This document shows positions 6,270 through 8,054 of a stretch of 8,054 nt of DNA, piece by piece. The notes beneath the pieces were generated by a model. That model saw only the letters and a program-made list of their open reading frames with translations, was not told the origin of the DNA and searched no databases. The DNA lies in IMG/VR virus record IMGVR_UViG_2778261448_000002, positions 1 through 8,054 of that record; one strand, 5' to 3'. Positions within the stretch are counted from its first letter, which is position 1. Each line of letters opens with the position of its first letter. Made by a program: the position numbers and the translations under genes. The stretch is from a virus. Lineage: Duplodnaviria; Heunggongvirae; Uroviricota; Caudoviricetes.

Positions 6270-6542
6270 TTCTCAATCTCTCGATGGCGCAGTGCAGCAG
6301 ATGCCAGTTGTTCAGGCTGACGTATAAAGTATAAATAAACTGGTTCCAGTGTAAAGCCCCCACCTTAATGGAATAAAAACCAAACAACAGATTGCTGGGA
6401 TACAAACAACGCTTATTATTAAAAGCGGTTAAACAAATTAAATTTTAATGTTATGCAAATTTGTTAGATCACCATAATATCTCATTTGAAAACCGCTGAA
6501 ATAACAACCCTATCAGGGTTAATCATATTAAGGTGAGTAAAT

Positions 6543-6629
6543 ATGGAAAACAACAAATCTGCACATTACGTTCCTTTTTTATCTGTAATACTTTTTGTTT
6601 TATGCTGTGCGTGGGCATTATTTTTATAA
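6543..6629 (+). CDS. Small hydrophobic peptide ORF (28 aa, MENNKSAHYVPFLSVILFVLCCAWALFL); toxin-like or leader peptide candidate
   Basis: ATG at 6543 preceded by AAGGTGAG at 6-nt spacing. Single C-terminal hydrophobic helix with a CC pair. Lies in AT-rich intergenic DNA; a perfect palindrome AACCCTATCAGGGTT (6505..6519) sits just upstream of the RBS. Confidence 0.3.
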   Translation: MENNKSAHYVPFLSVILFVLCCAWALFL

Positions 6630-6830
6630 AAATATTCACAGATAAAATATACCCGCCAAACCTGGTTAAGTGCGGGTGCGTTGAGGAGGCCTGACACATC
6701 AGAGGTGGCGAGGGATTCTTCATCATCTAACCAGCAACCTTAACTTTGGGATTCACTAATTTAAGTACGCTAAAGGTGTTAAAACCCCGAGCCACCCAGG
6801 GACTGCTTGAAAAGTATATAAAAATCAATA

Positions 6831-6862
6831 TCAACTATCGATTTTACCTAAATGTTATGATA
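6831..6862 (+). promoter_or_regulatory. Candidate promoter with extended -10 (TGtTATGAT) for the nuclease-domain gene
   Basis: TG at 6854-6855 and hexamer TATGAT at 6857..6862, with a weak -35. A 5-bp palindrome GCGTAtcatTACGC (6873..6886) lies in the predicted 5' leader. Confidence 0.3.
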
Positions 6863-6923
6863 TAAAAAGTTAGCGTATCATTACGCATCCACAATATTCG
6901 AAGGTTTCCATATTCAATGTAAG

Positions 6924-7604
6924 ATGTCGACAAAGGCCTATTATTCTATGGATATCATAACAAAAATCATTGAAGACGCTCAAAAATTACAGTTATCCTC
7001 TGCAAATGAAGCTGAAACACGCCTTAAGATCATAGATCAAATACTCTTTGAAGTATTGAAATGGACTAGGGATGATGTATCGGTAGAAACTCGAGTTAGC
7101 GAAGATGGCGAGACTACTTTTGCTGATTATGTCATTAAAACAGCAAGTACTGCGTTTATAATTGAAGCCAAAAAAATTGGTCAGGCATTCGACACAAAAC
7201 AATTCGATAGGAGACTGAAACTCAACAACAATAATCTTTCCGGTCCTTTTGGAGATGCCATAATTCAAGCAAGAGATTATTGTAGAAAACTGAGCATTCA
7301 ATTTGCTGTTGTAACTAATGGTGAACAATGGGTTATATTCCCAGCAAATAGAACGGATCAAGTTGCATTCAACTCATCTTACGCAATTGTATTTAACAAT
7401 TTACAAAGTGCACTTAAAGATGACTATACAGAATTTTATGACTTATTATCAAGAAAAGCAGTTATAAACTCTAGCCTTGAAGTTACTTTATTAGGCAACA
7501 GGGAAGATCAAATAGAAGAAAGACGCTTAAAAAATACAGTCCGTAAAAGTATCTCTTATGATGCAAAGAATCCAATATACCCATTAGTCGAAGAAGCAAT
7601 TATC
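6924..7604 (+). CDS. IS1-interrupted gene encoding an HsdR-N-like PD-(D/E)xK nuclease domain protein (N-terminal 227 codons); candidate defense/exclusion gene
   Basis: ORF track 6924..7685; the last 26 codons and the stop are IS1 sequence, so native coding ends at 7604. Translation has the type I restriction R-subunit N-terminal pattern: ETRLKIIDQILFEVLKW ... FADYVIK ... AFIIEAKK ... QFAVVTNGEQWVIF (E / D / E-x-K catalytic triad arrangement). Visibly AT-rich and on the opposite strand to the phage early-right genes. Confidence 0.6.
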
Positions 7605-8054
7605 GGTAGTGACTCCAACTTACTGATAGTGTTTTATGTTCAGATAATGCCCGATGACCTTGTCATGCCGCTCCACCGATTTTGAGAACGACAGCGACTT
7701 CCGTCCCAGCCTTGCCAGATGTTGTCTCAGATTCAGATTATGTCGCTCAATGCGCTGAGTGTAACGCTTGCTGATAACGTGCAGCTTTCCCTTCAGGCGT
7801 GATTCATACAGCGGCCAGCCATCCGTCATCCATACCACGACCTCAAAGGCCGACAGCAGGCTCAGAAGACGCTCCTGTGTGGCCAGAGTGCGTTCACCGA
7901 AAACGTGCGCCACAACTGTCCTCCGTATCCTGTCATACGCGTAAAACAGCCAGCGCTGACGTGATTTAGCACCGACGTAGCCCCACTGTTCGTCCATTTC
8001 CGCGCAGACGATGACGTCACTGCCCGGCTGTATGCGCGAGGTTACCGACTGCGG
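7605..8054 (-). mobile_element. IS1 family insertion sequence (partial; continues beyond window end)
   Basis: Terminal inverted repeat GGTAGTGACTCCAACTTACTGATAGTGTTTTATGTTCAGATAATG begins at 7605, and the following sequence matches IS1 throughout, with scattered substitutions relative to the K-12 IS1 sequence as recalled. Confidence 0.9.
7620..8054 (-). CDS. insB: IS1 transposase InsB, C-terminal portion (5' end beyond window)
   Basis: ORF track 7620..7997 translation [22 protein letters not shown]...[69 protein letters not shown] is InsB. The frame stays open to the window edge. Confidence 0.85.

Follow-up and report, generated by a model that had tools for sequence, protein, structure and literature searches.

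The presence of a 28-codon open reading frame (ORF) for a hydrophobic peptide in an 8,054-nucleotide stretch of viral DNA (Caudoviricetes; positions 1 to 8,054 of IMG/VR record IMGVR_UViG_2778261448_000002), hereafter the window, raises the question of whether so short a frame is a gene and, if it is, what kind of product it encodes. A preliminary description of the sequence had proposed a type I toxin, a leader peptide or a component of the same accessory module as the nuclease-domain gene downstream. It drew on four sequence features, all of which are present, at coordinates shifted by about 1 base:

6543-6629, plus strand: small ORF of 28 codons (ATG at 6543, TAA at 6627-6629), encoding MENNKSAHYVPFLSVILFVLCCAWALFL
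6530-6537, plus strand: Shine-Dalgarno (SD) sequence AAGGTGAG, 5 nt ahead of the small-ORF ATG
6506-6520: perfect 6-3-6 palindrome AACCCTATCAGGGTT in the presumed 5' untranslated region (UTR), folding at -6.2 kcal/mol
6651-6677, minus strand: hairpin with arms ACCCGC (6651-6656) and GCGGGT (6672-6677) and a 15-nt loop

None of the four is individually beyond chance. ORFs of 15 to 30 codons are frequent in the 33% G+C stretch around the small ORF, and the window holds 23 perfect 6-bp stems with loops of 3 to 8 nt, compared with 11.6 ± 4.2 in shuffled sequences. The duplex of the SD with the 3' end of 16S rRNA (-8.5 kcal/mol) lies between the 5th and 10th percentiles of the 293 ATGs in the window. 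As the individual features are unexceptional, the question had to be taken to a comparison with related sequences.

Prophage context of the small ORF

The window belongs to a Rac/Qin-like lambdoid prophage of Escherichia coli in which the phage genes lie on the minus strand, and the small ORF sits in a mosaic cassette at the edge of the nin region:

About 6296-6649: mosaic cassette of approximately 350 bp carrying the small ORF, bounded by the first nin-region gene on one side and by the base of the hok terminator on the other
6355-6328, minus strand: promoter-like TTTACA-16-TATACT, facing the DUF1367 gene and divergent from the small ORF, matching 10 of 12 consensus positions
5670-6269, minus strand: DUF1367 gene (irsA/NinB-like)
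5380-5670, minus strand: YbcO/DUF1364 gene
4841-5503, minus strand: DUF1133/Q-type antiterminator gene
4361-4514, minus strand: tRNA-Thr(TGT) and tRNA-Gly(TCC), downstream of the Q-like gene

Beyond the tRNAs are lysis genes and the small terminase subunit. Alignment with a Qin-like backbone of the DUF968/RusA type places the left homology boundary of the cassette at approximately 6296, the right boundary (approximately 6649) is the hok terminator, and the G+C content of the cassette is 33%, versus 47%. K-12 Qin and the Rac prophage of strain 442/2 have an unrelated cassette in this slot, between the hok terminator and the first nin gene, with rem on the phage strand (L005 2118-2369 in Qin and L152 5967-6227 in Rac; annotated antirepressor). 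Apart from the hok 3' UTR and the beginning of the next gene, the small-ORF and rem versions share nothing, and no remnant of rem was found in the small-ORF cassette. The occupant of the slot in Gifsy-2 is a LexA-controlled antirepressor gene (L153 2197-2418), and in Gifsy prophages a LexA-controlled antirepressor is found upstream of irsA, in the equivalent position (PMC3121763). A search of the cassette for a LexA box found none. The small-ORF cassette fills a position taken by an antirepressor gene in these other prophages.

Conservation within the cassette is highest outside the small ORF, at 6303-6362, where column entropy is 0.02 to 0.17 and the sequence is near-invariant across clades. 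It includes TTTACA-16-TATACT, the best promoter-like site of the cassette, and the nin/Q operon may have its own regulated promoter at 6296-6362. A 5-2-5 palindrome, ACTGGTTCCAGT, was also seen in this block, at 6339-6350 between the TTTACA and TATACT hexamers.

Conservation and distribution of the small ORF

Homologous loci were retrieved from viral contigs using anchors outside the small ORF, so as not to select for the ORF itself. With an anchor in the upstream A/T block (6412-6455), a frame of exactly 28 codons was found in 116 of 116 loci. With an anchor 200 nt away (6302-6343), it was found in 125 of 127 loci; the other two are interrupted by an insertion sequence (IS), and all 125 loci without such an interruption therefore retain the 28 codons. 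In the two interrupted viral contigs (L156 and L157), the IS (end TGGATTTGCCCCTATATTTCCAGACA...) lies between the conserved promoter block and the small ORF, about 90 nt past the equivalent of the 6302-6343 anchor. Across 74 unique sequences there were no indels within the small ORF, while indels occurred at 6405, 6470, 6491, 6631 and 6674, and the small ORF is the only ORF of constant length in the cassette. Overlapping frames that could have competed with it (53 amino acids on the plus strand at 6533-6694, and 67 and 43 amino acids on the minus strand) were rejected, being variable in length or absent in homologues.

The 15 nucleotide alleles encode about 13 peptides. Each has the same layout, illustrated in the window by a polar N terminus (MENNKSAHYVP) followed by a 17-residue hydrophobic C-terminal segment; the Kyte-Doolittle mean of residues 12 to 28 is 2.6 to 2.9 in all 15 alleles, and the hydrophobicity of this segment survives every replacement. 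On a minimum-spanning tree of the alleles, 17 synonymous and 20 nonsynonymous changes were counted, an excess of synonymous changes over the neutral synonymous fraction of 0.26 (binomial P = 0.007), with 5, 13 and 19 changes at codon positions 1, 2 and 3, respectively. Pairwise dN/dS values between distant alleles were 0.22 to 0.41. A lack of this synonymous versus nonsynonymous pattern would have counted against the ORF in the preliminary description, whose 28-residue, single-helix hydrophobic frame instead behaves as a conserved small gene in length, synonymous excess and hydrophobicity. These statistics come from about 37 inferred changes, some of which may have been counted twice owing to recombination, and as the family is young they rest on few events. 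In a clade 73% identical to the window, the homologous stretch extends from the SD up to the stop codon, past which the sequences are unrelated; comparison between clades shows conservation of the promoter block, of the SD and of the ORF, and divergence of the 5' UTR that separates the promoter block from the SD.

The SD itself varies. The type found in the window (-8.5 kcal/mol) occurs in 63 of 116 loci and the divergent type, AAGGTGG, reaches -10.2 kcal/mol, but the AAAGTGAG/AAAGCGAG type, in 41 of 116 loci (approximately 35%), reaches only -4.4 kcal/mol. The "good" SD of the preliminary description is thus present and usable in the window and mediocre in about a third of loci.

The SD-to-stop segment was identified in 1,173 of 5,426 complete E. 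coli genomes (about 22%), with a median of one copy and a maximum of two, and it lacked annotation in every row inspected. In a phage collection, four sequenced E. coli isolates (vB_Eco series) have the small ORF as well. Among 185,579 species representatives, the only carriers were Shigella flexneri and Escherichia ruysiae, and the family is young and restricted to Escherichia/Shigella. Relatives of the 28-residue peptide were sought with degenerate DNA patterns, and the protein search used a 56-residue concatenate of two alleles. An exact-sequence look-up of seven peptide alleles in a collection of 15 billion proteins gave no match; the collection contains the peptide solely in artefactually lengthened forms, because its length is below gene-caller cut-offs. 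In a database of 5.8 billion protein clusters, P0002 and P0003 are rare frameshifted alleles from public assemblies that were annotated only because the frameshift extended the ORF past those cut-offs, and P0001 is the intact small ORF called from an in-frame start further upstream. Full-text searching of the literature with the peptide and its fragments returned nothing. Searches of Pfam, NCBIfam and PHROG gave no meaningful family match, and any function of the peptide is therefore guessed purely from its composition. The sole PHROG match, of one allele to the signal region of an Rz-like spanin, was marginal (E = 0.009); together with an FAGC "lipobox" in one allele it had suggested a lipoprotein, a reading rejected because the motif is absent from the remaining alleles.

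These data lead us to regard the small ORF as probably a real gene that annotation has missed, whose product would be a small inner-membrane peptide made in the lysogen. The strongest competing reading is that the ORF is fortuitous and the cassette is kept for noncoding reasons, as the divergent promoter or leader region of the nin/Q operon or for signals carried on the minus-strand early transcript; the open frame would then persist only because the family is young. Consistent with this, the best-conserved stretch of the cassette carries the minus-strand promoter-like site rather than the ORF, 20 of 37 changes are nonsynonymous, a third of loci have a weak SD, frameshifted alleles exist and the phylogeny is shallow; the chance that no stop codon would arise over about 37 changes is approximately 0.12, which is not negligible. 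However, noncoding constraint would not account for the significant synonymous excess and third-position bias, for a constant length free of internal indels between flanks that have them, for homology in the divergent clade running from the SD to exactly the stop codon, or for hydrophobicity kept through every replacement, and we consider a fortuitous ORF rather unlikely. If the small ORF is translated, approximately 22% of sequenced E. coli strains carry a prophage membrane peptide that no annotation pipeline reports.

Palindrome, putative promoter and downstream hairpin

The palindrome just 5' of the SD had been interpreted as an operator or an RNA hairpin. Column entropy in the cassette peaks at 6498-6527, i.e., the palindrome region is the most variable, and in two of the three clades the palindrome has been replaced: the commonest clade has a different one, of the ATCAATATTGAT type, at this site, and the divergent clade has none. 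Of the two elements whose conservation was in question, it is thus the peptide that is conserved across loci and not the palindrome. Within the window-type clade, a single compensatory change (C-G to U-A) and some variants compatible with G-U pairing were seen, mismatched intermediates were common, and the covariation was not significant, 98 of 500 shuffles scoring at least as high. A consensus fold computed for the 5' region reaches only -2.6 kcal/mol. With an assumed transcription start site, the unpaired probability of the SD (0.21 to 0.38) equalled that of shuffled controls for four allele types. Sequestration of the SD by an upstream ACCGCU, seen in the minimum-free-energy fold of the window allele, was rejected because accessibility equals that of the shuffles and other clades drop the pairing. 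Given the replacement between clades, the nonsignificant covariation, the weak consensus fold and an SD accessibility like that of shuffles, the palindrome appears to be allele specific and was treated as neither a conserved operator nor an RNA element.

Three further features flank the ORF:

6408-6455, plus strand: conserved A/T-rich block CTTATTATTAAAAGCGGTTAAACAAATTAAATTTTAATGTTATG, upstream of the putative promoter and approximately 90% identical in the 73%-identical clade
6451-6480, plus strand: putative sigma-70 promoter of the small ORF, with TTATGC (6451-6456), a 16-nt spacer and CATAAT/TAATAT (6473-6480)
6650-6717, minus strand: remnant of a hok-family mRNA 3' UTR/terminator, with its U-rich tail on the minus strand at 6632-6650

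The hexamers of the putative promoter and their spacing are common to all three clades (TTATGN-16 nt-CATAAY/TAAYAT), and the spacer diverges. A consensus scan found no plus-strand promoter in the cassette, this one having been missed because its -35 is weak. A small-ORF promoter with a weak -35 at 6451-6480 is plausible but unproven. Within the A/T-rich block, a terminator-like hairpin on the minus strand (6410-6427; CGCTT-N8-AAGCG, then TTGTTTGTAT) was also observed, which could be a pause site or terminator of the phage early transcript; in the divergent clade its arms are changed, leaving only G-U pairing on that strand.

The hairpin past the stop codon had been taken as a feature of the small ORF. 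Positions 6651-6717 of the window correspond to 67 bp that begin 19 nt past the hokD stop codon in K-12 Qin, with 92.5% identity and on the hokD strand. The same segment follows the hok genes of ATCC 8739, DA61218 and Rac 442/2, and is present in thousands of E. coli genomes independently of the small ORF; E. coli ATCC 8739 carries the small-ORF cassette together with an intact convergent hok. The sequence past the hairpin is U-rich on the minus strand (UAUAUUUUAUCU...) and reads GCGUUGAGG on the plus strand. The homology 3' of hok, together with the U-run on the minus strand, indicates that the hairpin is the terminator end of a convergent hok mRNA. Homology of the window to hok-bearing loci breaks at 6717, within the second hairpin of the UTR; no Hok ORF follows in the window after this point, and tblastn found no hok within 3 kb. 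The hairpin thus belongs to the minus strand and, by these comparisons, is what is left of a hok gene that has been deleted; it does not terminate the small ORF. Elsewhere, 77 of 117 loci have a hok gene converging on the small ORF at a distance of about 100 nt or less, and the ORF persists where hok is deleted, as in the window, or distant. The corrected picture of the locus, in which the hairpin marks a deleted hok, is relevant to the annotation of hok remnants and of cassette boundaries in lambdoid prophages.

Candidate roles of the peptide

Under the reading that we prefer, the 28-residue product would have a polar N terminus and one C-terminal transmembrane helix, and its cassette is located between the terminator of the convergent hok and the first gene of the nin/Q operon. 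The small ORF would be transcribed from a promoter of its own, counter to the direction of early and late phage transcription, the layout of a "moron" expressed in the lysogen. From the sequence we infer its transcription start, its translation, the insertion of the peptide into the inner membrane and its activity there, where it might modulate some membrane protein or weakly perturb the membrane.

The lambda genes bor and lom are phage morons. Like them, the cassette is self-contained, has a putative promoter of its own that is oriented against phage transcription and is lower in G+C, and it alternates with the rem cassette at the same junction. It is much smaller (approximately 350 bp), however, and no terminator-like site on the plus strand follows the small ORF, the hairpin past the stop codon having no T-run behind it. 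Small inner-membrane proteins of E. coli, for example single-helix proteins of 20 to 50 amino acids, have been found by ribosome binding site (RBS) models or ribosome profiling. The 28-residue peptide, with one predicted helix, its own RBS and a length missed by gene callers, resembles these proteins, and the general features of bacterial small membrane protein genes are present (a conserved ORF, an RBS, purifying selection and a predicted transmembrane segment); unlike them, the small ORF is accessory, being prophage borne and confined to Escherichia/Shigella, and is known from sequence alone. Although new and unannotated, the small ORF would be of a familiar kind, that of small hydrophobic peptides from prophages and accessory regions, and is not surprising in that respect.

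A narrower proposal is that the peptide is the toxin of a new type I pair, with an antisense or divergent small RNA (sRNA) from the cassette blocking its translation. This is a special case of the preferred explanation and not an alternative to a real ORF. ShoB/Ibs-type toxins of E. coli have fewer than 30 amino acids, a short polar N terminus and a hydrophobic C-terminal helix, and the peptide is similar in size (28 residues, within the limit of <60 amino acids for a hydrophobic, single-helix type I toxin), in its polar N terminus, in its hydrophobic helix ending in ...LFL and in its intergenic, unannotated location. A type I system that is already known, hok, also neighbors the locus. The palindrome of the window allele, read on the minus strand, is a terminator-like hairpin with a T-run, and a promoter-like TTTCCA-16-TATGAT (6549-6522) on that strand overlaps the small-ORF start codon. 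A search of the minus strand for an antisense RNA nonetheless found no conserved promoter or terminator: the terminator-like palindrome is missing from two clades, and four promoter-like sites were found against 2.9 expected in shuffles. No match at E ≤ 10 was obtained with the Hok/Gef, Ibs, Ldr, TisB, ShoB and other toxin models of Pfam and NCBIfam; the Hok family (PF01848) did not match the peptide, and a search of the window against Rfam at E ≤ 1 returned only two tRNAs and noise, with no sRNA family. An SD-occluding 5' UTR, as in type I toxin mRNAs, was not found in the four allele types, in which SD accessibility equals that of shuffles, nor does the consensus fold amount to a long structured 5' UTR. 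Type I toxin loci commonly occur in multiple copies, unlike the small ORF, which is prophage borne and typically single copy. Of the toxin assignment in the preliminary description, the size and single-helix hydrophobic character have held, while a family match and SD sequestration beyond that of shuffles have not been found, and we consider a type I toxin distinctly unlikely.

Hok/Sok, represented by hokD of Qin and hok of Rac, is the physical neighbor of the small ORF, although the peptide is unrelated to Hok and K-12 hokD has no small ORF next to it. A more far-reaching proposal, which we regard as very improbable, is that the peptide represents a new prophage-borne family of membrane toxins or abortive-infection proteins that would cooperate with the convergent hok. 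As the hok terminator has no U-tract in the plus direction, no plus-strand terminator follows the small ORF, and a read-through transcript would be antisense to hok mRNA at its 3' end. Such read-through from the small-ORF promoter could gate the processing and activation of hok mRNA; another possibility is that Hok is modulated in the membrane by the peptide itself. Cooperation with hok is not required by the data, because the small ORF persists without hok.

That the small ORF is a leader peptide or upstream partner forming one module with the nuclease-domain gene is hardly credible: the gene is indeed co-oriented and downstream, but it starts about 300 nt away with an opposite-strand hok 3' UTR remnant in between, and the junction of the window is found in only eight genomes. 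The gene, on the plus strand from 6924, represents the first approximately 227 codons of an 824-residue protein with an HSDR_N nuclease-like N terminus and a KAP P-loop NTPase domain. It is cut at 7605 by the end of an IS1 (InsB ORF at 7620-7997, minus strand) and is thus a pseudogene in the window strain. Five different downstream contents were seen next to the small ORF, the others comprising a convergent hok followed by an OLD/AriA-like ATPase-nuclease and a cytosine methylase; DUF1971, hok and a KilA-N gene; the IteAS anti-phage pair; and hokD in a Qin-like backbone. As the cargo varies while the small ORF stays, the ORF is a fixed flank of a variable slot and not a leader or partner of the nuclease gene. 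Being at the fixed edge of a slot with changing anti-phage cargo (the KAP NTPase, the OLD-like nuclease plus methylase, IteAS and hok), the small ORF is a cheap and well-defined candidate for studies of small proteins and prophage morons.

The cargo slot, between the nin region and the DUF977/replication genes, was itself seen to hold changing, defense-like cargo on either strand (6718-8054 in the window, and 7655-10129, 5767-8660 and 4279-7672 in L001, L002 and L155, respectively): the HSDR_N plus KAP NTPase gene, the OLD/AriA-like ATPase-nuclease with a Dcm-type methylase, IteAS and hok. Elsewhere in the window, a moron-like plus-strand ORF of 197 residues (2200-2793), with an N-terminal hydrophobic segment and an RHGE motif, is located among the lysis genes of the minus strand.
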